Positions 1 to 12,570 of a stretch of 12,570 bases of DNA are shown piece by piece; position 1 is the first letter of the stretch, and each line of letters starts with the position of its first letter. The stretch spans positions 1 to 12,570 of the forward strand of contig DYFG01000037.1 of the NCBI GenBank assembly GCA_020725315.1, read 5' to 3'. This stretch comes from Nitrosotalea sp. (GTDB taxonomy: Archaea > Halobacteriota > Syntropharchaeia > Alkanophagales > Methanospirareceae). Under the pieces are notes generated by a model. The model searched no databases. It was given only the letters and a program-made list of their open reading frames with translations, and had not been told where the DNA came from. The position numbers and the translations under genes are program-made.

Positions 1-1
1 T

Positions 2-53
2 GAACGAAATTCAGAAAACAACATCTTTATAAACTTAAAGTGCGGAATATGGG
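2..53. repeat. Left arm of a perfect 52-bp inverted repeat whose partner is 12519..12570. Position 1 is unpaired only because the window ends, so the IR may extend outward.
   Basis: By-hand reverse complement of 12519..12570 is identical to 2..53 (gaacgaaattcagaaaacaacatctttataaacttaaagtgcggaatatggg). Position 54 versus the complement of 12518 is the first mismatch. Confidence 0.9.
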
Positions 54-580
54 CTGTAAGCGGAAATAGCATCTTCGTAGCTTCCCCTATCAAATGTTTT
101 CTTTGCATCTTCCGATAAAGAGATGCCGATCGCATTTTTACCTGCGATTATGCTCTTCTTCACATTATAAATGTTCTTTTCAATCGCTTTTACAAGCCCT
201 TCATCCTTAAGCCCTTCTGCACCGCTTCTTGCTTCTATGAATTTTCTCAATGATTCCTGGTATTTTCCAATCGATTTCTCATAATCTTTTACTTCGAATA
301 ATCTTGTTGCTTCAGTTGCGAGTCTCTGTGCGGTATCAAATAATCCAGGAGTTGTCTTTTTCCATTCCTCACGCTCCCCTATCTTGACTCTCAGTGTGGC
401 AATGTCTCTCTCCACTTCTTCCACCTTCTTCGGGTCTTTCAGCTTTGATCTTATTGCATTTGCTTCGGATTCGAGTCCTTCCGTGTTCAAAGAGTTTAGT
501 TCCCTCTCGAGTTGCTTTAATCGCTGGACCCTATTTTCATACTCTACAAGTTTCCGTTCTATGAGGGATAGGTCTTTCAT
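35..580 (-). CDS. 181-aa charged coiled-coil protein of unknown function. Its last six codons (PYSAL-stop) lie inside the left IR.
   Basis: Intact ORF. Its ATG overlaps the TGA of the upstream gene as ATGA at 577-580. E/K/R-rich heptad-like sequence and TAA stop at 35-37. Confidence 0.6.
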   Translation of the reverse strand: MKDLSLIERKLVEYENRVQRLKQLERELNSLNTEGLESEANAIRSKLKDPKKVEEVERDIATLRVKIGEREEWKKTTPGLFDTAQRLATEATRLFEVKDYEKSIGKYQESLRKFIEARSGAEGLKDEGLVKAIEKNIYNVKKSIIAGKNAIGISLSEDAKKTFDRGSYEDAISAYSPYSAL

Positions 581-1608
581 TTCAGCATCTCCTCCAGTTT
601 ATCATCTCCTTTATAGCCTTCCTCTTTCAATTGCTCGTATCTGGTCTTTAACACCAGATATTCCTTCCGCTTCTTCTTATTTCTTCTAACTACAAATCCA
701 GCGCCTGTAAAGGCAGCAATGAGCACCACTCCACCGATATAAATGTAGTTATTATTAATTGTTGGAGCAAAGTCAAAGCTGTTTAGCACACCGTCGCCAT
801 CTATATCAATAGCAATGCTCATAGCTTGATTTACAAGCTCTTTTGCTATCTCATATTTCCCGGTGCTTAAAGCCTGTTCTGCCTGAAAAAGTAAAGCCTC
901 CGCTTTAGCCATGTTAAAGCCTTTGGCTTTCTCTGATTCTATTGTTTTCTTTGCCTCTCTTATACCATCCTCGGCAAAAACTTTAAGATTGTCGAAAAAG
1001 TAAACATTATTATCACCAGATCCTGCTGCTATATAAGAGCCATCAGAAGAGACAGAGACACTTTTAACATCTTTACCTGTCTTATAGCTCCAAATAAGCT
1101 TTCCTTCTCTGTTGAAGAAGTAAGTATTGTTATCCCTAGACCCAGCTGCTATATAAGAGCCATCAGAAGAGACTGAGACACCCCAAACCTGATCGCCTGT
1201 CTCATAGCTCCAAATAAGCTTTCCCTCTCTGTTGAAGTAGTAAACATTGTAATCCATAGACCCAGCTGCTATATAAGAGCCATCAGAAGAGACTGAGACA
1301 CTACAAACCGGATAGCCTGTCTTATAGCCCCAAATAAGCTTTCCCTCTCTGTTGAAGAAGTAAACTTTAGTATCATCAGACCCAGCTGCTATATAAGAGC
1401 CATCAGAAGAGACTGAGACACTATTAACCAAACCACCTGTCTCATAGCTCCATAGAAGCCCGTAGTCTTCTTGTGTTCCCTCTGCCTGAGCTACGCTAAT
1501 TAAAAGAAATAAGATTGTAATTATCCCAATTGTCTTCGTCACTTCTTCAGCTTTTTCAGCTAACCTGAGCCACTCCCCTGATGCTCTTTTATTCATTCCA
1601 ATACTCAT
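577..1608 (-). CDS. Membrane-anchored beta-propeller repeat protein (YVTN/PQQ/WD40-like 40-aa blades). It has an N-terminal signal anchor, a C-terminal transmembrane helix and a basic tail.
   Basis: Repeated motif SVSVSSDGSYIAAGSxDxxVYFFNREGKLIWSYxTG occurs four times. Hydrophobic segments are TIGIITILFLLISVAQA (N-terminal) and IGGVVLIAAFTGAGFVV followed by RRNKKKRK (C-terminal). Alternative ATG at 1596. Confidence 0.8.
   Translation of the reverse strand: MSIGMNKRASGEWLRLAEKAEEVTKTIGIITILFLLISVAQAEGTQEDYGLLWSYETGGLVNSVSVSSDGSYIAAGSDDTKVYFFNREGKLIWGYKTGYPVCSVSVSSDGSYIAAGSMDYNVYYFNREGKLIWSYETGDQVWGVSVSSDGSYIAAGSRDNNTYFFNREGKLIWSYKTGKDVKSVSVSSDGSYIAAGSGDNNVYFFDNLKVFAEDGIREAKKTIESEKAKGFNMAKAEALLFQAEQALSTGKYEIAKELVNQAMSIAIDIDGDGVLNSFDFAPTINNNYIYIGGVVLIAAFTGAGFVVRRNKKKRKEYLVLKTRYEQLKEEGYKGDDKLEEMLK
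985..1460. repeat. About four tandem copies of a 120-bp coding repeat (1021-1140, 1141-1260, 1261-1380, 1381-~1460, plus a partial copy upstream), each encoding one propeller blade.
   Basis: The 60-nt sequence lines align in perfect 120-nt register. The block cccagctgctatataagagccatcagaagagactgagaca recurs almost unchanged, as does ctt/ctcatagctccaaataagctttccctctctgttgaag. Confidence 0.9.
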
Positions 1609-1724
1609 ACATTCTTACCATTTCTTACGTAGTTGCAACTTTATTCTCTCCGATCCGAGACTTGCTTAAAGTATCTCATTTGCTTTTTCCTCCCAATATC
1701 TTGATCATTGTTTCGTGCTGTTCC

Positions 1725-1940
1725 TCATGACATAATATCCATGGATGCACGTTCAAGTTTAACCCTATCTCCAACCTTCACACACAACACATCCCTCACC
1801 GTTTTATTAATCCTTATCACATCCATGTCATCATTGACACCCAGCGGTTGAACTGTTACAATCTGCTTCTGCTCATCAAACACGATTCTCGCGTGGTCAA
1901 TCTTTCGCAGACCCAATCGTTCCATTATTACAGGATGCAC
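1725..1940 (-). CDS. Small 71-aa hypothetical protein with a GTG start (or ATG at 1925). It could be an AbrB/SpoVT-like swapped-hairpin DNA binder, but this is very tentative.
   Basis: ORF only. The KVGDRVKLE-type segment is weakly reminiscent of looped-hinge-helix proteins. It overlaps ORF 1897..2100 by 44 nt in another frame. Confidence 0.3.
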   Translation of the reverse strand: MHPVIMERLGLRKIDHARIVFDEQKQIVTVQPLGVNDDMDVIRINKTVRDVLCVKVGDRVKLERASMDIMS

Positions 1941-2100
1941 AACCGCGTCTCTCGAACCTTTCTTGACTTATTCGACCATCTCCGCAATCCTGAGTATCCT
2001 CCTCGAAGGTATGAAATTCGTAGAGCCGCAATAGGTATTTGTAATTCTCTTCAATTGATTTCACCCATTCCAGATGCTGATGGATGAGTTCGCTATCCAT
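1897..2100 (-). CDS. Small 67-aa hypothetical protein lying 8 nt downstream of the SPFH gene. It may be spurious or a remnant.
   Basis: ORF with a GGAG 13 nt upstream of the ATG. It contains three Cys (CGDG...CASC) and overlaps the 1725..1940 ORF. Confidence 0.25.
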   Translation of the reverse strand: MDSELIHQHLEWVKSIEENYKYLLRLYEFHTFEEDTQDCGDGRISQERFERRGCASCNNGTIGSAKD

Positions 2101-2108
2101 AGATAGGA

Positions 2109-3761
2109 TTACTCCTTGCGCCCAATCGCCGTTCCGCAGTTCGTGCAGAACCTCGTGCCAACTGGCAGTTCAGCATTACATCCTGGGCAGATGATAACCT
2201 TCTTCACTTCATAAACAGGTGGGACTGGTTGTGCACCCCCGCCTATTACCACAGGTTGTCCATATCCTCCGCCCGTGACAACCGTTGTGCCTCCGGGTTC
2301 TGCATCCCGCGCCCTCGTAGCAGCCGTAGTCCCCATCTGTTCAAGTGCCTTCGCAGCCATACGTTCTATTCTATCCCCGCCTTTATCCGCAATCTCCTGT
2401 GTAGTCCGTGCAAGTGCCTCCTTATCGCCAAGCCTATCCTCGTATATCTTCATAATCTCCTCAGCGCTCTTCGATTTGTATCTCTCTTTGAACGCCTCGG
2501 CAATTGCAACGCTGTCCCTTGCACCGAGCGCGAGTATCTGCTCGTCTGTAAGACCAGTAGCTAATTTCATTCTCGCCAATTCGCTGAGATATTCTGCCTG
2601 TTTACCCTCTACCATAGATATGAGCGCCTCATCGGTAGCGGCTGAGCGTGCCTTAACCCTCTCTTCTTCTAACTCCGCCTCTATCTTCATCCTCTCAAGC
2701 CCAAGTTCTTGATAGCCAGCCACGTCCTCACGTTTTACTGCTTTCATCGCTTTTAGCAGTTCGATGCCTTCTCTTGCAGCTCTTGCATCCTCCTCGTCTT
2801 CTTTCCGCTCTTTCTCAAGTTCATGTAAATGCCGTTCCATATCCATCTCCAGTTCGTGCCGCTGTTCAACTCGTCTCAGCATCAACCTCCGTGCAAATGC
2901 TCTATCCTCTTGATTATCCTCAAATATCCGTTTGAGCTCGTTCATCTCGTTCTCTCTTATGACTTTATCCCTGTCAAGCTCGTGCAAAAACTTCTCAAGG
3001 TCTTCTACATTCTTGAATTCGTCCATCTTATCATCGGTGAGCCGTGCACGCATCCGCTTCTTGAGTTCGAGTCGCTCATCCTCAAGACCCTCTACTCGCT
3101 CCTCTAAGCCAAGCTTCGCGCCTTCCTTCCCAATATAAGCCCTTTTTTCAATCAAATCCTTCCAATAACTTTCGTCGTAGTCAAAATACGGCATATACAC
3201 GAGTTTAAGACAAACTCTGCTCAGTGTTGTATTCAGTAGATGTTCAAAGTCCTGTTCAAGCTCTTTTTTCAAGTCTAAATTACCGTACAAATCCTCGAAC
3301 GAATACTGCTTGACCTTTGATTGCAGTAAATTCAGCATTTCATTCCTCAGCATAGCTTCAACGTCTGCCGTCGTTATGTGCTCCCTGCCTTTCATAAGAT
3401 TATTGAAGAATAGTATCGGATCCTCAACATTCACAACTATCTTCCCCTTCACACCCGCATCAAAGTTCTCTTTTGTTCTCAGTCCTCCAATGTTGAAGTA
3501 GAGCCCAACATCTGAGTCGTCCACTAATATTACGGTCGCCTTTTCCGCAAGGTTCAGCGTCTTTATCACCTGGATAAGCCCGCCAACGGTGTATGTTCCG
3601 GGTGGTAACTCTCCGAAGAATCTCCCTCCTTGCAAGAATATCGCCTTCGTTCCTGATGTAACGGTTATTTTCTTGCTAAAAAACCCTTTTATGTCACTGA
3701 CCTCGATTCGCTCTGCAAAGTCGTTCGGGTTCCTTTGCCATACGCTTATTTTACCAAACAT
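2109..3761 (-). CDS. 550-aa SPFH (band-7/stomatin/flotillin-like) domain protein. After the SPFH domain it has a long E/R/A-rich coiled coil, a Gly-rich linker and a C-terminal CxxC...CxxC zinc ribbon.
   Basis: The N-terminal ~200 aa follow the SPFH pattern (ITVTSGTKAIFLQGGRFFGELPPGTYTV ... TKENFDAGVKGKIVVNVEDPILFF ... MLRNEMLNLLQSKV ... LSRVCLKLVYM). The C-terminus is CPGCNAELPVGTRFCTNCG. A strong SD AGGAGGTGA lies 7 nt before the ATG, and the stop is TAA. Confidence 0.7.
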   Translation of the reverse strand: MFGKISVWQRNPNDFAERIEVSDIKGFFSKKITVTSGTKAIFLQGGRFFGELPPGTYTVGGLIQVIKTLNLAEKATVILVDDSDVGLYFNIGGLRTKENFDAGVKGKIVVNVEDPILFFNNLMKGREHITTADVEAMLRNEMLNLLQSKVKQYSFEDLYGNLDLKKELEQDFEHLLNTTLSRVCLKLVYMPYFDYDESYWKDLIEKRAYIGKEGAKLGLEERVEGLEDERLELKKRMRARLTDDKMDEFKNVEDLEKFLHELDRDKVIRENEMNELKRIFEDNQEDRAFARRLMLRRVEQRHELEMDMERHLHELEKERKEDEEDARAAREGIELLKAMKAVKREDVAGYQELGLERMKIEAELEEERVKARSAATDEALISMVEGKQAEYLSELARMKLATGLTDEQILALGARDSVAIAEAFKERYKSKSAEEIMKIYEDRLGDKEALARTTQEIADKGGDRIERMAAKALEQMGTTAATRARDAEPGGTTVVTGGGYGQPVVIGGGAQPVPPVYEVKKVIICPGCNAELPVGTRFCTNCGTAIGRKE

Positions 3762-3782
3762 CTTTCTATCACCTCCTATTTT

Positions 3783-4271
3783 TCACCTCACAACCCGCAT
3801 TTTAAACTTAACAGCTTGAATACCTGCTCGGCACCATTTCATGTACTCAAGGCATGCTTTTCGATTAGCTTTCCTCTCCCTACTGAACTCTATTTGCAGA
3901 GACTTGTTGAAATGTTCAAACGCAGTTTTGAGAATGGATAGCGCCTCCTTGTAGCCAGAAAGCGCATCGTCCAGGTCACCAACCGCATCAGACGCCCATG
4001 CAAGATAATAAGGATAGAATGCCTTATCTGTATGTGCAAGACCAATCCTGCTATGATACGAAGCAGTGTAACCTTGTGCTTTGGCGATTTCCGCAGCTTC
4101 CATCCTGAACGAACTGGCTGAGAGCATGTATCTTGCTCTTTCTGTTTTATCCTGCTCCGCCATCTGATGCCAGAGTGAAACCGCCTTGTCATACAACTCG
4201 ATTACAACCTCTTTATTCCGTTCTTTAAGTGCTCTTTCCTTGTATTCTATTGCCTGTTCCCACAGTTCCAT
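3783..4271 (-). CDS. 162-aa all-helical (TPR-like?) protein of unknown function.
   Basis: Intact ORF 3 nt downstream of the 4275..5477 stop. A GAGGTGA SD is embedded in the upstream gene end, and the stop is TGA. Confidence 0.55.
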   Translation of the reverse strand: MELWEQAIEYKERALKERNKEVVIELYDKAVSLWHQMAEQDKTERARYMLSASSFRMEAAEIAKAQGYTASYHSRIGLAHTDKAFYPYYLAWASDAVGDLDDALSGYKEALSILKTAFEHFNKSLQIEFSRERKANRKACLEYMKWCRAGIQAVKFKMRVVR

Positions 4272-4274
4272 TTT

Positions 4275-5477
4275 TCACCTCACCAGCAACAAAACATCCT
4301 TCGCACCCTCTTCCGGTGTTATGATCTCCCCTTTTCCATCTTCCACCATCTCCCTGAATGCACCCACCACTACCTTCCTCGGCACCTGATATTTCGATGC
4401 AACCTTATCAGCCCTGAACTGTAGCACGCCCTCTTTTACATCTTCTTCGAGCTCACTAATCATATTCTCAATCTCCTCCTCCATCGAAACAGGCACGAAC
4501 CACTCCGCAAACTGCTTCGTCTTCTTATCGCTCTCGTTGAAAAACACCTTTCTTTCGCTTAAATCCACGAGATAAACGCTTTTGTTCACGTTCCTGATAT
4601 TTTCTACCTTATCAATAATCCATTCGGTCCATCCTGTAGGTGATACCAGAACCAAAGCACCAAACGAATTCTTCTCACCTTCACCTGCTTGTATAAACCC
4701 GGTAATCATATCAGAGACTTCTTTTCCTATTTTTCGGTAAATAAAACATTCTTCATCTTCTGGAACGATGAATTTAATGTTGAACCCAACAGAAACGCGT
4801 TCACGAATTACCCCTTTTGTAATCTTCGCAGTTATTCCCTCTTTCTCAATATCAATCTTCCAAGCCTCTTTATCGTATTCCTCTTCCGTTAGTGGATTGA
4901 CCACGCCTTGACTCGCGAGACGCGATTGCAATAGGAAGAAATAATTCAACCGCACGAACTCAACATCCTCCTGCGTGAGCACGCTATCCCGTATCTTCTC
5001 TGCATCTTCTGCCAGAACGTTATCAATCGCATTTTTCGTCTTTTCCAACTCCTCCATCTGCTCCTTCACATTTTCGGATAACTGCGCGATGGTCTGTAAT
5101 TCATTACTCATGCGTTCTCGCTGCTCAGCTTCAAATTCCTTTATTCTGCTTTCAAGCTTCTGTTCACGCTCTAAAATCGCTTGCTGCTGCATCGCAATTT
5201 CTTCTTCGCGTTTCTTCATCTGAAGCTTCTTCTGCTTCCATTCATTCACCATAGCTGCGACGACGCTTTTCACCTCCTCAACGCCTTCGCCAATCAATTC
5301 CTTTATGGCTTGTCGGTATCTAATATCCTCAACGTGTTCCCGGTATTCATCTATGGACTCTCTCTGTGATTTTATGTTCTCCTCAAGAGCTCTTGTCTCT
5401 TCTAAAAGTCGTTGCGCCTCTCCAAGCACATCACCCATCGTGCCGGTATCTTTGAAAAACAAGGGCTGCTTCTCCAT
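4275..5477 (-). CDS. 400-aa protein with an N-terminal ~200-aa charged coiled coil and a C-terminal ~200-aa globular domain of unknown function. No Walker A motif is present.
   Basis: Intact ORF with an ATG at 5477 five nt after the upstream TAG and a TGA stop. The composition is coiled-coil (EEIAMQQQAILEREQKLESRIKEFEAEQRER) followed by a mixed alpha/beta-looking C-terminus. Confidence 0.6.
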   Translation of the reverse strand: MEKQPLFFKDTGTMGDVLGEAQRLLEETRALEENIKSQRESIDEYREHVEDIRYRQAIKELIGEGVEEVKSVVAAMVNEWKQKKLQMKKREEEIAMQQQAILEREQKLESRIKEFEAEQRERMSNELQTIAQLSENVKEQMEELEKTKNAIDNVLAEDAEKIRDSVLTQEDVEFVRLNYFFLLQSRLASQGVVNPLTEEEYDKEAWKIDIEKEGITAKITKGVIRERVSVGFNIKFIVPEDEECFIYRKIGKEVSDMITGFIQAGEGEKNSFGALVLVSPTGWTEWIIDKVENIRNVNKSVYLVDLSERKVFFNESDKKTKQFAEWFVPVSMEEEIENMISELEEDVKEGVLQFRADKVASKYQVPRKVVVGAFREMVEDGKGEIITPEEGAKDVLLLVR

Positions 5478-5482
5478 GCGGA

Positions 5483-5986
5483 CTACACCCCCTGCGCCAT
5501 ATTCTTTATGAGGAAGTCCGTTCTGTATAGGAAGATGTTCCTCAAGTTGTCTAAGCTCCGCTTCACTGTTCTTACCTGTAGAATAATGTCCGAAGTCTCG
5601 CCCTTGAGCACATGGTCATACACGAGGTCTGCCGCCTTCGTTATTATTTCTAACTCGCTTAATAACTCTTTATCAAATTCCACCATTCTATCCACTACCT
5701 CATCCGATACCTTATCCTGCTTAAATAAGGGCGATAGTCAAAAAGAGGCATTATCTATTTCGTTTCTGAACAGGTCTAAGGTATTGAGAATGTCTTTGAT
5801 ATGCTCTACTACCTCCCTCCTTCCGTCCTTATAAGCTAAATCGCTAACCTCTTTCAACGTATTATACGACTTTTTCAATTCCCTTGAAAGTTTGTCTCTT
5901 ACCGCACGGTCTGAATTGAGTCTGTTCTTCTTTACTCGATAGTCATAACCCGGTATGATCTTCTCCATCAATTTTCCCATATCCAT
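5483..5986 (-). pseudogene. Possible single ~166-codon gene interrupted by an in-frame TGA at 5738..5740. As annotated it is two small ORFs, 5738..5986 (82 aa) and 5483..5695 (70 aa, GTG start).
   Basis: Both ORFs are in the same minus-strand frame (5986-5695=291=3x97). The 14 codons between the TGA and the next start are open (LSPLFKQDKVSDEV). A GGGGTGA SD lies 5 nt before the ATG at 5986. Confidence 0.4.
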
Positions 5987-6080
5987 ATAATCACCCCTTT
6001 ACCAATTTACTGTTAAGTATATCTTCGAGTTACATTCCTTATAATGGTTGTTACATATAATCAGAATATTAATCAGCATA

Positions 6081-7334
6081 TTACAAAAAATCCGTAACGA
6101 CCCTATCCTTGCTCACTTTATCACCCCAATTCACCAGGCCATTGTACAGAAAAAGTGCTAAGGTCAGGATAAAGATGATGACCGTGGGTATGAAGGAGAA
6201 GGAGATTCCAAACAGGTAAACAAAGATCGACGTACTTACCGGCCCTATCAGGAATCCTGAGGTCTTTGCGAATTCAAAGATACCGGAATAAGCGCCATAT
6301 CTTTCCCGCGGCACAATATCCGTTACCCGTGCCTCTATTAACGGTTCGGCAAAGGTAGTGCCGAGGGATATAATAAATATCGTTGCTAAGAGACCTGGAA
6401 GTAACTTCAGAAATCCTAAGGGTATGATAAAGAGGGTGGAAATTAAGAACCCGAGATAGATCATTTTACTTTTTCCAATTCTATCACCCAACTTACCAAG
6501 CGGTATCTGGAAGAGCAAGAAAGGAGCGGCAGAGATACCTAACCAGAGTCCGATTACGAATGGGTTATAACCCAGGTTGCGAAGAAATAAGGGACCGAAT
6601 ACCCATTTGGCTGAATACCAGAAAAAGAGTGATACGGTGCAGAGAGCCAGAACTTTAAGTTCTCGCTGCTGATTGAACTCCCTGAGTAATATTAACAGAT
6701 CATCCTTACCTATTCCGTTTCTCGTGCTGTTTCTATTACTATTACTATCACGGTTATTATCTTTTAATTTGAGGACTAACAGCAACGATGCGAGGAGCAG
6801 AAGAGCCGAGAAGATGTAAGGAGTTCTTATTTCGAATCGCTCTGCCAATAAGCCGCCAATTAAGGGTCCTATAAATATACCTGCATTTGCAAAGGTACCG
6901 TAAAAAGATCTGAACTCGCCCCTCCTTCCGATAGGCGATATATCCTTAATAACAGCCTCACTGATAACCCAGGCCGGGGCCATGGCGATACCAAATGCTA
7001 TTTGCAACCCTATTAATGCATAAAGGCTGGTATTCCTGAAGAATGCGAAAAGCACGCCCGAGATGAGGAGAAACGAAACGATTAACAATCGTTTCTTTCC
7101 GATTTTATCAGAAAGAACACCAACTGGAAGACTGAATGCCAGCCCGGCAAACGAAGCGAGCGCGGCAATGAGCCCAACCAATTCCGCTTTTCCGAGGAAT
7201 TGCTTCAGGTAGAGTGGATGGACGGTGATGAAAGCGCCTATGAATATGCTGAAAAGGAAGAAGATCGTGGAAAATAAGAGTAACTGAGTGCGGGCTTGGG
7301 CTTTCGGCTGTCGTTGTAATCTCGGTTTGAACAT
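6081..7334 (-). CDS. Major facilitator superfamily (MFS) transporter, 417 aa, about 12 transmembrane helices.
   Basis: Two motif-A signatures (GVLSDKIGKKRLLIVS and LGKLGDRIGKSKMIYLGF) sit in loops 2-3 and 8-9. Hydrophobic helices are present throughout, with a hydrophilic central loop (KDNNRDSNSNRNSTRN). The stop is TAA. Confidence 0.9.
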   Translation of the reverse strand: MFKPRLQRQPKAQARTQLLLFSTIFFLFSIFIGAFITVHPLYLKQFLGKAELVGLIAALASFAGLAFSLPVGVLSDKIGKKRLLIVSFLLISGVLFAFFRNTSLYALIGLQIAFGIAMAPAWVISEAVIKDISPIGRRGEFRSFYGTFANAGIFIGPLIGGLLAERFEIRTPYIFSALLLLASLLLVLKLKDNNRDSNSNRNSTRNGIGKDDLLILLREFNQQRELKVLALCTVSLFFWYSAKWVFGPLFLRNLGYNPFVIGLWLGISAAPFLLFQIPLGKLGDRIGKSKMIYLGFLISTLFIIPLGFLKLLPGLLATIFIISLGTTFAEPLIEARVTDIVPRERYGAYSGIFEFAKTSGFLIGPVSTSIFVYLFGISFSFIPTVIIFILTLALFLYNGLVNWGDKVSKDRVVTDFL

Positions 7335-7421
7335 AGATATAAAACACCTTCTCAGCTAAAAAGAATATTATCTGTACGAATGACCCGGTAAAAAATCCAG
7401 GTCCAAATACAAACTATAACT
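7335..7421. promoter_or_regulatory. 87-bp AT-rich divergent intergenic region between the MFS gene (-) and the phosphatase gene (+). It is a likely bidirectional promoter region. No SD precedes the phosphatase ATG, so the transcript may be leaderless.
   Basis: The region is AT-rich (gatataaaac, aaaaagaatattatc, caaactataact), and both flanking genes start at its edges. Confidence 0.35.
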
Positions 7422-8336
7422 ATGCATGCGGAAGTTGAGGAGTGGGTGAAGAAGGCGTTTGAGGCGCGTGTGGAGGAGTTCTCAGCACTGATTAATGAAG
7501 CAAGGGAGGTGTTAAAGCGCGAGAACGGGTTACGAGCAGGAAGCGGATTGGTTCGCATAGCTCCCCAGGCAGTGAGGAAGGTTGCCGTTATAGGCGATAT
7601 ACACGGTGATATCGAAAGCCTTGTTCACGTATTGAGGGATACGGATGTGGAAACCGCTGATAGAATTATCTTTCTTGGTGATTATGGCGACAGGAGCGAG
7701 GAAAGTGTTGAAGTTTACTATCTCCTTTTGACGCTCAAGGCATTAGCGGGGATTGGGGAAAAATTAATTCTGCTAAGAGGTAATCATGAAGGCCCGCCGG
7801 ACATGCCGGTCATGCCCCATGACCTCCTGTTATTCTTTACGAGCAAATATGGAGCTCGGGGGAGGGAGTTGTACAACCGCATAAGAGAACTTTGGGAGTA
7901 TTTACCGTATGCTGTAGTGGTCACCGGCAGCTATCTGATGGTGCACGGTGGGGTGTCTGCCACGGTGACTTCTAGTGAGGATATTGCGTATGCACGTGAA
8001 ACGCATCCCTCGTCGAGCACCTTTGAGGAGATACTCTGGAGCGACCCGATTGAGGGCAAGGGCTATTTTAGTTCGCTGCGGGGTGCGGGCAGGATGTTTG
8101 GTGAGGATATCACCGATGCGGTTTTTCGTGCGGTAGGCGTGAAGACGTTGATAAGAAGCCATGAGCCGTGCGAGGGTGTTGACGTGCGGCAGAGAGGAAA
8201 GATTCTAACCCTATTTTCACGGAAGGGGGCGCCCTATTTCAACAAACGAGCCGCATATTTGGTGTTGGATGAAACTATACTTCGAGACGCAAAAGATGCC
8301 GGGGAGCTGGCGAGAAATGCTGCACGGATATGGTAA
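7422..8336 (+). CDS. PPP-family serine/threonine protein phosphatase (calcineurin-like metallophosphoesterase; PP1-arch/PrpA-like).
   Basis: Canonical PPP motifs GDIHGD, GDYGDRS (GDxxDRG) and GNHE occur in the correct order and spacing. The stop is TAA. Confidence 0.9.
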   Translation: MHAEVEEWVKKAFEARVEEFSALINEAREVLKRENGLRAGSGLVRIAPQAVRKVAVIGDIHGDIESLVHVLRDTDVETADRIIFLGDYGDRSEESVEVYYLLLTLKALAGIGEKLILLRGNHEGPPDMPVMPHDLLLFFTSKYGARGRELYNRIRELWEYLPYAVVVTGSYLMVHGGVSATVTSSEDIAYARETHPSSSTFEEILWSDPIEGKGYFSSLRGAGRMFGEDITDAVFRAVGVKTLIRSHEPCEGVDVRQRGKILTLFSRKGAPYFNKRAAYLVLDETILRDAKDAGELARNAARIW

Positions 8337-8548
8337 AGAAGAAAGCATAAAGGAGAAAGAAGGTCGTTGAGTGAGATGCTTGCTTCAGTACTTTCGAAAC
8401 CTATGAAGATCTGAGTAAGATAAAAAGCCCGTTAGATTTAAAAACGAAGAATTCGTATATTGAAAATGAGGTTGAAGGAGATGAAGGTCAGCAGTCAGCT
8501 GAAAGGAGGTATATACGAAGTAAGTTTCGGATATCATCCCAATTTGGA

Positions 8549-9085
8549 ATGATATACGACATTAATGTCGGATATACCGAAGTTAGGCGACATTTTGCTT
8601 GGCGGTGCGAGAAAATGAACGAAAAAACAATAAACAAAGATAAAAGGTATCTGCTTATATTGCCATGCTCCAAACGTAAGAAGAGAATCTCTGAGGCACG
8701 CGCCATAGAATTATATGATGGCCCATTTTATAGGATGGTTAGAAAGAGCGGGTTGATGAACTTAAATATTTTAATTCTATCGGCAAAATACGGCTTAATT
8801 AATGCTTGTGACAATATTTCTTCTTATGACCAAGTAATGAGTGCTCAGAGGGCGAAAGAGTTAGCGGAAGGAGTTAAACTTAAATTAGAGAAAGTACTAG
8901 AAAATAACGGTTACGACGAGATATTCATAAATCTTGGTAAAACATACACGCTTGCGTTAGAAAACAGCAACAAAATTCTTAACGATTACGATGTTTACTG
9001 GGCAAGAGGGCAAATCGGAGAAAGATTAAATCAACTTAAAAGATGGTTGCGTAGAATCGAGTTGGAAAATGGTGGTAAATTATGA
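8549..9085 (+). CDS. 178-aa hypothetical protein, first gene of the helicase-nuclease operon. The true start may be the internal ATG (MNEKTINK). Its function is unknown.
   Basis: Its TGA stop overlaps the helicase ATG as ATGA at 9082-9085. Conserved-looking segments are KRYLLILPCSKRK, ELYDGPFYRMV and ILILSAKYGLINA. GC is low. Confidence 0.6.
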   Translation: MIYDINVGYTEVRRHFAWRCEKMNEKTINKDKRYLLILPCSKRKKRISEARAIELYDGPFYRMVRKSGLMNLNILILSAKYGLINACDNISSYDQVMSAQRAKELAEGVKLKLEKVLENNGYDEIFINLGKTYTLALENSNKILNDYDVYWARGQIGERLNQLKRWLRRIELENGGKL

Positions 9086-9645
9086 TTACTTGGAATGACT
9101 TTCAAAATACTGTTTTTACTCAACTAGGTAGAGACATTAGAAGACAAAGTAACCCTGACCAAAACGCTGCTATACAAGCCCCTCCAAATCACTCTTTATT
9201 CATAGTCTCTGGGCCAGGCAGTGGAAAGACAACAGTAATTACCCTGAGGGTTCTGAAATTAATTTTTGTGGACGACATAAATCCCTTAAATATTTTAGTT
9301 ACAACTTTTACACGAAAGGCTGCCGCTGAACTGAGATCAAGGGTTCTTGGATGGGGAGACCAACTGAGACGTGCATTTATAAATAATTCATCTTACTATC
9401 CCGTTAGGAATCAACTACAAAGATTAGATTTCAACAGAATAATTACGGGGACTTTGGACAGTATCTCGGAGGAAAAATTAGGAGAGTACCGTGCTCCAGG
9501 CACTCCACCACCACCAGTAGTCATTGAGGATTTTGTCTCAAATGCATTGATGATAAGGGTTGGGCTTTTTGGGCACGGTAGACACAATAATCCGGTTCTC
9601 AGAGATTATATCATCCAATTAAGTGGATCTGCCTTTGGTGGTTAA
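9082..9645 (+). CDS. UvrD-like helicase N-terminal fragment (Q motif, Walker A, motif Ia/Ib).
   Basis: GPGSGKTT and TFTRKAAAELR are present. The ORF ends with TAA at 9643-9645, 23 nt after the next fragment starts in the +1 frame. Confidence 0.8.
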   Translation: MITWNDFQNTVFTQLGRDIRRQSNPDQNAAIQAPPNHSLFIVSGPGSGKTTVITLRVLKLIFVDDINPLNILVTTFTRKAAAELRSRVLGWGDQLRRAFINNSSYYPVRNQLQRLDFNRIITGTLDSISEEKLGEYRAPGTPPPPVVIEDFVSNALMIRVGLFGHGRHNNPVLRDYIIQLSGSAFGG

Positions 9646-10174
9646 CGTTGGTGAGATGAGTGCTACGCTAAGGGAGATAAAAGATAGGTTCTTTCATGAC
9701 AAAGTAAATGTTAATCGCTTCAGGAGTCTGAGTAACCACCCAGGTATTGGGGTGGCGTGCGATGCTATAGATGATTATAACCAAGAATTACAAAGTCGCC
9801 TTCTTTTCGATTTTGCGAGACTGGAGATAGAATTCCTTGAACGGCTTCGAGCAGGCGTGTTGAATAATTTTCTTCAAAATATAAGATTCATTTTGGTTGA
9901 CGAATATCAGGACACAAACTTACTTCAAGAACAAATCTATTTTGAGCTTGCGAGAGCAGCATTACAAAATGGAGGCAGCATCACAGTTGTTGGTGATGAT
10001 GACCAATCTCTCTATCGTTTTCGTGGTGCAACAGTCGATCTTTTTCAAGCATTTCCAAATAGAGTCAATAATCACTTGGTGATAAGCCCTGTGACTGTGT
10101 ATCTCTCTCAAAACTACCGCTCTACGCCGAATATTGTACGTTTTGTAAATGATTTTGTTACCTTAGATACGTGA
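9623..10174 (+). CDS. UvrD-like helicase middle fragment (motifs II, III, IV), GTG start.
   Basis: DEYQDT, GDDDQSLYRFRGA and QNYRS are present. It ends at an in-frame TGA, and the frame reopens immediately after. Confidence 0.8.
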   Translation: MDLPLVVNVGEMSATLREIKDRFFHDKVNVNRFRSLSNHPGIGVACDAIDDYNQELQSRLLFDFARLEIEFLERLRAGVLNNFLQNIRFILVDEYQDTNLLQEQIYFELARAALQNGGSITVVGDDDQSLYRFRGATVDLFQAFPNRVNNHLVISPVTVYLSQNYRSTPNIVRFVNDFVTLDT

Positions 10175-10189
10175 TTTCAAAACGCCAGA

Positions 10190-11461
10190 GTGACAGGTAA
10201 ACCCCGGATTAGAGCATCACGCCCAACAACACCCCAACGTTATATTAATTATCCAGTTTTAGGAATGTTCCGGGACGATGTTGGCACCCTTGCCCACGAG
10301 CTAGCGCAATTTGTTCATAGAGTAGTTCATAGGGGGGGATTTCAAATAAGGCATCAAGGTAACCGTTATACAATACGAATTAGTCCTCAAGGTGGCTCAC
10401 CAACGGACGTTGCTATGTTGTGCAGTTCACCACGAGAGTTGGCTTCTAATGGTAATCCAAGACTTCCTTTACTTTTGGATGATGAGTTGAGGCGCATGAG
10501 CCCACCAATTCAAGTTTTTAATCCAAGAGGTCAAAATTTAGAGAGAATCCCAGAAGTTCAAAGATTATGCGGTTTAATTTTGGAGTGTATAGATCCTGAT
10601 AGCAACATCCAAAATAGCATAGTGACATTGCCTCAAGCAGCGGTAACTATCTTTAATGCTTGGCGTGCCGAGGCTACGAACCTTGTAAATAGTAATCCAT
10701 CTCCCACCGCTCCAATCAATCTTAGACAATTCGTCAATGCGTGGCAGCGCAGAACCCCCTTACGTAGAAGAATGCAGACCAGAGAGGAAGTACCATTGCT
10801 AGATCTGGTTTACAAGTTGGTCACATGGATACCTCCTATGCAAAATGATATAGAAGGTTTAGTGTATCTAGAGGCAATAACTCGGGCAATCAGTCAAAGT
10901 GCATTGTTTGGTAACTTTGGTGCTGAAATAATCTTTGACCCTAGTAATCCTAATAGTAGGTTAGAGCAAGCTTCAATAAGAGAAGCACTTTGGAATATAT
11001 TTATGCCACTTGCAACTGGTGCAATCGAAATTGATGAAGACCTTCTTGAAACTTTACCAAGCGACAGAATAAACATCATGTCAATTCATCAGGCAAAAGG
11101 ATTAGAGTTTCCTCTGGTGATAGTGGATGTAGGAAGTGACTTTAGATATGATCATTGGAAGCAAGCATTTAAACGCTTTCCACGGCTAAACAATATAGGA
11201 AGAGTGGATGGTGTAAAAAGCCTGAATATGGAAGATGAATTAAGAAAGCACTCCCCCTTAGGACAATCTTCAAGATCAAGTTTAGATAGAGCATTCGATG
11301 ATTTAATAAGACATTATTTTGTAGCCTTTAGTAGGGCCCAAGATGTCCTATTATTAGTTGGTTTAAACTCTGTAAGAAGTGGTATTCCCAACATCGCCAC
11401 AGGATGGGATAGAAATGGAAGCTGGTATTGGAGGAGGTTAACCAATTTGGTGCATATTTAG
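10190..11461 (+). CDS. UvrD-like helicase C-terminal fragment (2B-domain region, motifs V and VI), GTG start, in the same frame as 9623..10174.
   Basis: IHQAKGLEFPLVIV and YVAFSRAQDVLLLVG are present. The TAG stop at 11459-11461 abuts the SD of the next gene. Confidence 0.8.
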   Translation: MTGKPRIRASRPTTPQRYINYPVLGMFRDDVGTLAHELAQFVHRVVHRGGFQIRHQGNRYTIRISPQGGSPTDVAMLCSSPRELASNGNPRLPLLLDDELRRMSPPIQVFNPRGQNLERIPEVQRLCGLILECIDPDSNIQNSIVTLPQAAVTIFNAWRAEATNLVNSNPSPTAPINLRQFVNAWQRRTPLRRRMQTREEVPLLDLVYKLVTWIPPMQNDIEGLVYLEAITRAISQSALFGNFGAEIIFDPSNPNSRLEQASIREALWNIFMPLATGAIEIDEDLLETLPSDRINIMSIHQAKGLEFPLVIVDVGSDFRYDHWKQAFKRFPRLNNIGRVDGVKSLNMEDELRKHSPLGQSSRSSLDRAFDDLIRHYFVAFSRAQDVLLLVGLNSVRSGIPNIATGWDRNGSWYWRRLTNLVHI

Positions 11462-11465
11462 GAGG
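11461..11465 (+). promoter_or_regulatory. Shine-Dalgarno GGAGG for the nuclease gene, 7 nt upstream of ATG 11473.
   Basis: ttaGGAGGaaaaaatATG. Confidence 0.6.
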
Positions 11466-11472
11466 AAAAAAT

Positions 11473-12537
11473 ATGTCATTGTCTGTTAGACCGAGACCAT
11501 ACATAATCCCTGAGTATAGTTTAACTGGCGACCTACTAGCATATCTTACCTGCGGGTTGCAATATAGATACCACAATAAGGGCTCTCTCCCTCCCTCTAC
11601 ACCTGTTCAGCTATGGTTTGGAGAATTCATACACAGTGTTATGGAAGAAGCATATCGTAGATGGCAAGATGAAACCTCGGAACAGCGTTTTCCATGGAAT
11701 TGGGATCCTGACGTACGCGATATCGAACTTGAAGTTGAAAGGAGACTAGAGGCAAGAGGTCTGTATGCTCCATTCGGTCTTTTTTGCGCATACGGATTGA
11801 CCCAAAGCCGACAATGCACCTGCTATACTAGAAATCCACCTCGTCAACATCAACTTATTGCGAGTCAGAGAACTGAGTCAGCAATCAATACTTGGGGACA
11901 ACACCTATTTCCACTTATTGCAGAAGCCGAAGTGAGACTTAAGGGTAGCAGAGACATGCCAAACTATCAACCCAATATTAGCAGGTCTAACTATTACGGA
12001 GTTACAGGCGTTATAGACGTAATAAGCTCTGTTAACCTTATCAATGCGCCACCGGGAAATTTAATTCTTCACTATATTCATCAGCATACGGAAGTGAGCC
12101 AAATAATAAATAATCTCGCTTCACAAGAGTATGAAATTATCATTGATTATAAAGGTATGAGAAGACCTGCTACTAATAGCCGTCTCTGGCAACATCATGA
12201 ATGGCAGATACTTACCTATACTTGGCTTAGGTCTCAACAACCGCAATCACGACCTATAGCTGCAGGAATAATTTTCTATCTTAATGAGTTGGCTTTATCC
12301 GGGGAAGATGTGGAAGAATTAAGAGATGATGTCGCGAGCAGTCTTACGGATGTGATGCCATCCGGACAGGACTTAAATAGAATACAAAACTGGCGGCGAG
12401 GAACGCCACCGCCCGTCCTCACACGTCCGTTTAGGGAGCAAAGGTCAATTAGAATTATACCAGTCAATGATACCGCTGTGCAAAATAGCCTTCAAAGATT
12501 TGATAATGTTGTATCTACCCCATATTCCGCACTTTAA
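11473..12537 (+). CDS. RecB-family PD-(D/E)xK nuclease (Cas4/AddB-like PDDEXK_1 fold), 354 aa from the SD-preceded ATG. The upstream-extended ORF 11428.. has no SD. The last five codons lie in the right IR.
   Basis: It has the N-terminal Cas4/RecB-like motif SLTGDLLAYLTCGLQYRY, motif II GVIDVIS, motif III IIIDYKG (hhhDYK) and the downstream QxxxY (QILTY). The stop is TAA at 12535-12537. Confidence 0.7.
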   Translation: MSLSVRPRPYIIPEYSLTGDLLAYLTCGLQYRYHNKGSLPPSTPVQLWFGEFIHSVMEEAYRRWQDETSEQRFPWNWDPDVRDIELEVERRLEARGLYAPFGLFCAYGLTQSRQCTCYTRNPPRQHQLIASQRTESAINTWGQHLFPLIAEAEVRLKGSRDMPNYQPNISRSNYYGVTGVIDVISSVNLINAPPGNLILHYIHQHTEVSQIINNLASQEYEIIIDYKGMRRPATNSRLWQHHEWQILTYTWLRSQQPQSRPIAAGIIFYLNELALSGEDVEELRDDVASSLTDVMPSGQDLNRIQNWRRGTPPPVLTRPFREQRSIRIIPVNDTAVQNSLQRFDNVVSTPYSAL

Positions 12538-12570
12538 GTTTATAAAGATGTTGTTTTCTGAATTTCGTTC
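12519..12570. repeat. Right arm of the perfect 52-bp inverted repeat. It contains the last five codons and the TAA stop of CDS 11473..12537, followed by a T-rich tract.
   Basis: Exact reverse-complement identity to 2..53. It runs to the last base of the window. Confidence 0.9.

Follow-up and report, generated by a model that had tools for sequence, protein, structure and literature searches.

A gene for a UvrD-like helicase on the archaeal contig DYFG01000037.1 (NCBI GenBank assembly GCA_020725315.1; the whole stretch of 12,570 nt analysed here is called the window) is interrupted twice, and we consider it very probable that the locus is a recently inactivated pseudogene in a decaying, acquired cassette resembling the Dpd DNA-modification system, and not a case of special decoding. 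Two kinds of lesion in the helicase gene, together with the truncation of a neighbouring nuclease gene by an insertion sequence (IS), support decay. In the course of events that we propose, two ordinary mutations, one inserting a single base within 9637-9643 and the other a substitution creating a nonsense codon at 10172, would have inactivated the helicase and become fixed in the population, and no full-length helicase would be made. The cassette would have been acquired with four genes, encoding a DUF6884/DpdC-like protein, the helicase, an iron-sulfur (Fe-S) PD-(D/E)XK nuclease and DpdA, an arrangement that in intact relatives would resemble a compact 7-deazaguanine (preQ0-type) DNA-modification and restriction system. 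In this strain of uncultured, methane-oxidising Methanophagales (ANME-1), the nuclease gene has lost its 3′ end to an IS1634-family element, and DpdA is no longer its neighbour.

The helicase gene, of ~792 codons, is split over three open reading frames (ORFs; 9082-9645, 9623/9638-10174 and 10190-11461), as seen in the ORF listing and in three-frame translation (Table 1). A preliminary description of this DNA had the gene broken twice, by a +1 frame change and by an in-frame TGA, and both coordinates and frames proved exactly as given there. Fragments 2 and 3 do share a frame divided by the single TGA, around which the translation runs T-L-D-T-stop-F-Q-N-A-R and then meets no further stop until TAG 11459-11461. 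The +1 frame opens at GTG 9623, after TAA 9620-9622, giving fragment 2 a length of 183 aa, or 178 aa from GTG 9638, where gene callers place its start on public contigs; fragment 3 has its ORF-finder start at GTG 10190 and comprises 423 aa from there. Fragments 1 and 2 correspond to positions 2-90 and 140-269 of the Pfam UvrD-helicase profile, fragment 1 also matching residues 1 to ~186 of intact homologues, and fragment 3 matches Pfam UvrD_C and UvrD_C_2. Assignment to the UvrD/PcrA-like SF1A helicases is supported by PF00580 (E = 1e-20 and 1e-24) and PF13361 (E = 2.5e-7), and motifs Q, I, Ia, II, III, IV, V and VI follow one another in order, the signatures given in Table 1 as well as QAKGLEFP and VAFSRAQ being visible in the translation.

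When joined, the fragments yield a translation of 792 aa; the 120 proteins that it matches (738-809 aa, E = 0) are all uninterrupted, share up to 73% identity with it and cover 92-100%, mostly 100%, of the query. This end-to-end match puts the continuity of the ORFs far beyond chance and bears out the earlier proposal of one original frame of ~795 codons. The window encodes no single helicase polypeptide; all 120 closest homologues are continuous. The best NCBIfam match of the helicase was AddA, below its cutoff, and the best PADLOC matches of the fragments were GajB (E down to 1e-17). The latter reflect a UvrD-like core shared with the Gabija protein; however, the window lacks a GajA partner, the matches are limited to generic motifs and the neighbourhood is Dpd-like. 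A scan of genome contigs with the reconstructed helicase returned only distant UvrD helicases (24-31% identity), dominated by the generic VDEYQDTN pattern.

Alignment to intact homologues, proposed earlier as a check, located the first break at one extra base in GGTGGTT (9637-9643). Homologues follow the pattern G-[ST]-x-[WF]-G-L-N-V-S-E-I-S-A at this site, and the window reads S-A-F-G-G-stop in frame 1 and V-V-N-V-G-E-M-S-A in frame 2. In a codon comparison that also included the related locus L092, TTT GGC CTT AAT GTA TCT GAA of locus L089 stands opposite TTT GGT G GTT AAC GTT GGT GAG in the window. The first break is accordingly a 1-nt insertion within GGTGGTT, and TAA 9643 arises because the inserted base makes GTT-AAC read out of frame. 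The inserted base lies outside any homopolymer, and no slippery heptamer was found at the break, in agreement with the preliminary description.

The second break is the TGA at 10172, which falls in a variable alignment column (Q 17, H 6, R 5, L 3, E 3, G 2, P 2, A 1 and Y 1 among 40 homologues). Opposite it, L092 has CGA in the similar context GAC CGA CGA TTT CAA AAT GC, and the TGA probably derives from CGA by a C>T nonsense substitution, the simplest origin. Of the 12 other genes in the window, 6 end in TGA, and the ATGA overlaps at 577-580 and 9082-9085, previously cited as examples of TGA serving as a genuine stop here, are real, both with a TGA stop.

A full-length helicase could in principle still be made by programmed recoding, that is, by a +1 ribosomal frameshift at GGU-GGU-UAA-C plus readthrough or recoding of UGA 10172. 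The 0-frame stop does lie exactly at the shift site, as in prfB and antizyme, and the coding sequence downstream of the breaks is undegraded. However, that TAA is a mere by-product of one base inserted before GTT-AAC, and the features of programmed +1 frameshifting of the prfB, antizyme or Ty type were missing: a P-site tRNA-Gly on GGU would be unable to re-pair on GUU, folding around the shift gave z-scores of -1.1 to +1.5, and none of 120 homologues is frameshifted here. Across and downstream of the two lesions, RNA folding (z-scores +1.5, -1.1, +0.9 and +1.6) revealed no stability above that of shuffled sequence, which ruled out a stimulatory structure, and an Rfam search of the window yielded no match and no selenocysteine insertion sequence (SECIS). 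An alternative genetic code or selenocysteine at TGA 10172 was excluded by this null result, by the use of TGA as the normal stop and by the variable column, which never holds Cys or Trp. Moreover, neither interruption is kept in any of the 120 homologues, and two unrelated recoding events in one gene, beside a third lesion in the neighbouring gene, would be unprecedented. The programmed frameshift plus readthrough that had been entertained as a less likely alternative is disfavoured by the Rfam, folding and conservation results, and we regard it as exceedingly improbable.

Nor are the lesions peculiar to this contig. The 187-aa fragment 1 recurs, residue for residue, on five further public contigs (L001-L005), from JGI 3300029892 (12,619 nt), Logan SRR13164376, the NCBI metagenome-assembled genome GCA_020724985.1, JGI 3300029893 and Logan SRR28264341. 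Base-by-base comparison found both lesions identical in L001-L004, while L005 covers the frameshift alone and carries it. Relative to the window, L001 and L002 carry other bases at 6465, 6469 and 6477, and L003 does so at 6456, 7313 and 9019; at least three single-nucleotide polymorphism (SNP) haplotypes, the window included, share the lesions while these six other sites vary. Because the lesions are common to several assemblies with different haplotypes and the insertion lies outside a homopolymer, an assembly or sequencing error, one of the explanations offered earlier, is very unlikely.

The idea that both interruptions are such artefacts and the real gene is intact draws on the metagenomic origin of the contig and on a related locus, L097 (ERZ25039480 contig_14930, 5224-8303, 1.68 Mb), in which the helicase is split near residue 365 (362 + 388 aa) and FolE2 is split too (62 + 183 aa). 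Since FolE2 is also affected and the record is a long-read-like 1.68-Mb 'contig_N' entry, the L097 splits are likely long-read (homopolymer) indel errors. In the present case, by contrast, four other assemblies representing at least four samples or runs repeat both lesions, a fifth repeats the frameshift, all this against variation elsewhere, and the TGA is a substitution in the consensus; we give the artefact hardly any credence. A search with the N-terminal 363 residues for alleles carrying one lesion returned a best match of 77% identity; the window's own fragments are likewise unlisted there, so that an intact, near-identical allele is not disproved by this search. The L097 cluster also carries DndB-family genes and a phage-type integrase.

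We then considered the age of the inactivation. The window helicase deviates at 2 of 171 near-invariant columns (≥97% conserved, n = 120), and intact homologues deviate at a mean of 1.8 and a median of 1. This near-normal count, together with the intact motifs, suggests that the inactivation is recent on the scale of protein divergence. Of the possibilities listed in the preliminary description, recent pseudogenisation of an acquired system fits best: the lesions recur across haplotypes, close relatives lack the island that holds the gene, and outside the lesions the coding sequence shows no degradation. The picture is that of decaying defence islands in general, with several independent, disabling lesions in adjacent genes of an acquired and strain-specific island, flanking IS copies and sequence otherwise undegraded; there is no essential difference, the present locus being a typical case in an uncultured ANME-1 archaeon.

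The adjoining gene encodes a PD-(D/E)XK nuclease, the core of which is recognised by PF12705 (E = 1.2e-9) and PADLOC Cas4 (E ~1e-5). This partner had been taken to be intact; instead, its 3′ end is cut at 12518/12519, with ~44 C-terminal residues lost to the IS1634-family insertion. The window protein, of 354 aa, is 67-72% identical to its homologues up to RFDNVVS and then continues as T-PYSAL before a stop. The homologous nuclease has 395-397 aa in the five related loci with an intact helicase (L089, L090, L092, L095 and L096) and 395-404 aa over six related loci. An N-terminal Cys combined with a C-terminal C-x2-C-x5-C constitutes the Fe-S motif of Cas4/AddB-type nucleases. The ~44 missing residues (~135 nt) include the C-x2-C-x5-C segment NCTACDFKTFCPNP kept in homologues, and three of the four conserved cysteines are lost.

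The nature of the inserted sequence emerged from its repeats. The 52 nt at window positions 2-53 recur without a mismatch, in inverted orientation, at 12519-12570, and the repeat reaches at least 75 nt in L001. In L094, found in a metagenome scan, the same terminus has an IS1634-family transposase before it (NF033559, 216.5 bits, cutoff 100; DUF4277, E = 9e-39) and unrelated DNA beyond it, and overall the terminus GTGCGGAATATGGG abuts three different sequences. As the point at which the nuclease diverges coincides with the start of the repeat at 12519, and as the same terminus lies beside the transposase in L094, we infer that an IS copy cut the nuclease gene. The 12519 junction is also present in L001, L002 and L003. 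All contigs break off within the element, L002 and L003 after 27-32 nt of it, as contigs would at a repeat. Thus, the whole 12.46-kb segment sits between two inverted IS1634-family copies. A terminal inverted repeat could also mark a complete linear or viral genome; this was ruled out, the repeat being an IS1634-family end and the gene content chromosomal. Screens that read terminal inverted repeats in that way could be misled by IS-end repeats such as these. The L094 transposase is itself broken at 223-2101 into ORFs of 321, 112 and 92 aa, with a 15-nt tandem repeat at 1664-1694, and this IS copy may also be defective. At the left end of the window, ORF 35-580(-), encoding a coiled-coil/MIT-like protein of 181 aa, likewise ends in IS-encoded PYSAL and a stop, and is probably 3′-truncated by the left IS copy.

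Six related loci (the five above and L098) share the gene order DUF6884, helicase, nuclease and a TGT-family gene, with L092 as a variant: its TGT gene comes a few genes later, next to a larger DUF6884 gene that is the only one of the locus. The TGT-family gene of these relatives is DpdA by the NCBIfam equivalog NF041059 (367.8 bits, cutoff 200) and by PADLOC (DpdA, E = 1e-109 to 6e-125), and the preQ0 synthesis genes folE2, queD, queC and queE are found near the cassette in several loci. Hosts of the cassette include archaea (Methanoperedens, Methanobacterium and uncultured archaea) and bacteria (Nitrospiraceae and Thermodesulfovibrio). DpdA puts preQ0 into DNA, DpdC turns preQ0 into 7-amido-7-deazaguanine (ADG), and dpdD-K confer a restriction phenotype in Salmonella (PMC10164549). 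DUF6884, which bears the motifs C-x3-K and LSAxxG, is a relative of YaaA (PMC11701544). The window DUF6884 protein (Pfam DUF6884, E = 1.1e-13) keeps both motifs and aligns over its full length with the homologues of L089 and L090. PADLOC matched it to PDC-M57A (E = 2e-12) better than to DpdC (E = 2.6e-6), the DpdC match being weak and partial, at ~70 of 312 profile positions, and NCBIfam gave no match. The gene appears intact and would encode a short protein with weak similarity to DpdC and ArcS-C1.

Pfam and PADLOC detected no TGT or DpdA ORF in the 12,570-nt window, where the contig ends in the IS at 12519; a DpdA gene may lie beyond the IS in the real genome. We take the window to hold a Dpd-like cassette of the DpdA-associated kind, with no DpdA left on the contig; this had gone unrecognised in the preliminary description. 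In an intact system, the helicase-nuclease pair would form the ATP-dependent DNA-degrading (restriction) half, and DpdA with the DUF6884 protein the modification half. No description of the DUF6884/helicase/nuclease/DpdA architecture was found in the searchable literature.

The closest known counterpart is the Dpd system of Salmonella enterica serovar Montevideo (dpdA-K; PMC10164549, PMC5699537). As in that system, the intact relatives encode a true DpdA and a small, weakly DpdC-like protein, often adjoin the preQ0 genes folE2, queD, queE and queC, and combine the genes for modification with those for a helicase and a nuclease, in the manner of dpdD-K. However, the cassette comprises ~4 genes in place of ~11 in a ~20-kb dpd cluster, its helicase is UvrD-like and its nuclease Cas4/AddB-like, unlike DpdE/J/K, and it occurs mostly in archaea and assorted anaerobic bacteria. 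Furthermore, the five intact cassettes examined lack the DpdB ATPase, no ParB/DndB-like gene being found in them and DndB-family genes occurring nearby only at L097, and the window copy is without DpdA, its helicase and nuclease both defective.

A second comparison is with helicase-nuclease pairs of the AddAB/Cas4 type, which carry an iron-sulfur 'staple'. There, too, a UvrD-family SF1 helicase adjoins a PD-(D/E)XK nuclease, and the cassette nuclease shares the arrangement of one N-terminal Cys and a C-terminal C-x2-C-x5-C. In contrast, the cassette proteins are separate and much smaller, no NCBIfam equivalog cutoff is reached, their linkage is to DpdA rather than to recombination or CRISPR genes, and the window copy lacks the C-terminal cysteines.

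The cassette was acquired horizontally. The flanking phosphatase falls into one cluster (≥90% identity) with a protein of Methanophagales (ANME-1), and blastn against three related Methanophagales contigs (L086, L087 and L088) gave 93-95% nucleotide identity over 6143/6463-8364 only. In these relatives, the phosphatase gene is followed by aconitase genes and the island is not present. As homology stops at 8364, 8365-12518 is a strain-specific island with its left edge at 8364; its G+C content is 0.36-0.44 vs 0.46-0.51 in the adjacent core. Window positions 1-6142 are also non-syntenic with L086 and L088, which have an NTPase and NAD synthase past the MFS transporter gene; in the window, this region holds SPFH/zinc-ribbon, MIT/TPR and coiled-coil genes. 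The SNPs at 6465, 6469 and 6477 lie at the edge of a 235-nt deletion in L086 and L087.

Several points weigh against a fixed, non-functional pseudogene. The assemblies that repeat the lesions may all sample one population or study, in which case 'fixed' would apply to that population only; a literature search on their sample and accession identifiers returned nothing, and no experimental test of helicase-nuclease function in this cassette was found in the literature. In addition, GTG 9638 overlaps the TAA and GTG 10190 lies 15 nt past the TGA, and all helicase motifs are intact, so that some product may still be made. The last two points would suit a helicase active as separate subunits, in which coupling at GTG 9638 would give fragment 2, reinitiation at GTG 10190 would give fragment 3, and the pieces would assemble into an active enzyme; a further point comes from L098 (JGI 3300067986, 2740-2800), whose helicase is also in two ORFs (383 + 388 aa). 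That break, a frameshift in CAGCATATATAAAC, lies ~19 codons downstream of the position of the window's TGA, in the linker between domains 1A and 2A. It is repeated in Logan SRR33577143, and the L098 cassette is otherwise complete, DpdA included; it is a genuine independent loss and not a conserved split, and suggests that the helicase is lost recurrently. In the window, however, the first break interrupts domain 1A/1B itself, between Walker A and Walker B, instead of falling at a domain boundary; neither GTG 9638 nor GTG 10190 has a Shine-Dalgarno-like sequence ahead of it; and the partner nuclease is itself crippled. Homologues naturally split at exactly these points, which by the preliminary description would have spoken against a broken gene, were not found: none of the 120 closest is split, shorter relatives from a second protein search end at scattered positions (query residues ~196 to ~636) without a cluster at residues 187 or 363, and of the two split relatives inspected, L097 is probably an artefact and L098 is broken at another point. 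Activity as separate subunits is, in our judgement, distinctly unlikely.

The interruptions might instead be tolerated or regulatory, by way of a low-level +1 shift at GGU-UAA plus UGA readthrough or reinitiation, or they might be selected off-switches for a toxic restriction half after the IS separated DpdA. The independent frameshift in the otherwise complete L098 cassette would fit recurrent selection of this kind; still, we hold these options to be unlikely, and recent pseudogenisation within a decaying cassette remains the preferred reading.

As a routine pseudogene, the broken gene matters little by itself. For annotation, 9082-11461 should be marked as a single helicase pseudogene with a frameshift and a nonsense codon, and 11473-12537 as a nuclease gene truncated by an IS. 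The more useful lead is the compact, widespread DUF6884/UvrD-like helicase/Fe-S nuclease/DpdA cassette, which could be a minimal 7-deazaguanine restriction-modification system, and the locus documents, across several independent metagenomes, how IS1634 erodes an acquired island in a population of ANME-1.

Table 1. Coordinates of the features of the window discussed in the text.
Feature	Coordinates	Strand	Evidence and remarks
IS1634-family element terminus, left copy	1..53	+	Abuts unique DNA at 53/54; holds last codons (PYSAL and stop) of ORF 35-580(-)
Core segment	6143..8364	.	MFS transporter 6081-7334(-), metallophosphatase 7422-8336(+); common to related Methanophagales contigs
DUF6884 gene	8615..9085	+	156 aa from homologue-supported ATG 8615; ORF open from ATG 8549; ATGA overlap with helicase start
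Helicase fragment 1	9082..9645	+	187 aa; Q motif, Walker A (GPGSGKT), motif Ia; ATG 9082 to TAA 9643-9645
Helicase fragment 2	9623..10174	+ (+1 frame)	Motifs II (DEYQD), III (GDDDQSLYRFRGA) and IV (YRST); ends at TGA 10172-10174
Frameshift site GGTGGTT	9637..9643	+	One base too many relative to homologues; both frames aligned to 40 homologues
In-frame TGA nonsense codon	10172..10174	+	Alignment with 40 homologues, codon comparison
Helicase fragment 3	10175..11461	+	Frame of fragment 2; domains 2A/2B, motifs V and VI; ends at TAG 11459-11461
PD-(D/E)XK (Cas4/AddB-like) nuclease, 3′-truncated	11473..12518	+	Pfam PDDEXK_1, PADLOC Cas4, alignment to homologues
IS1634-family element terminus, second inverted copy	12519..12570	-	Codons PYSAL and stop 12535-12537

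Two further genes lie in the left part of the window. The beta-propeller (WD40/PQQ-like) gene at 577-1608 contains a 120-nt tandem repeat at 990-1459(-), with 3.9 copies at 85% identity encoding the blades SVSVSSDGSYIAAGS. ORF 1725-1940(-), of 71 aa, consists of a CDC48_N domain alone according to the Pfam annotation of the corresponding L001 gene call, and may be the remnant of a gene for a CDC48/VCP-like AAA ATPase.

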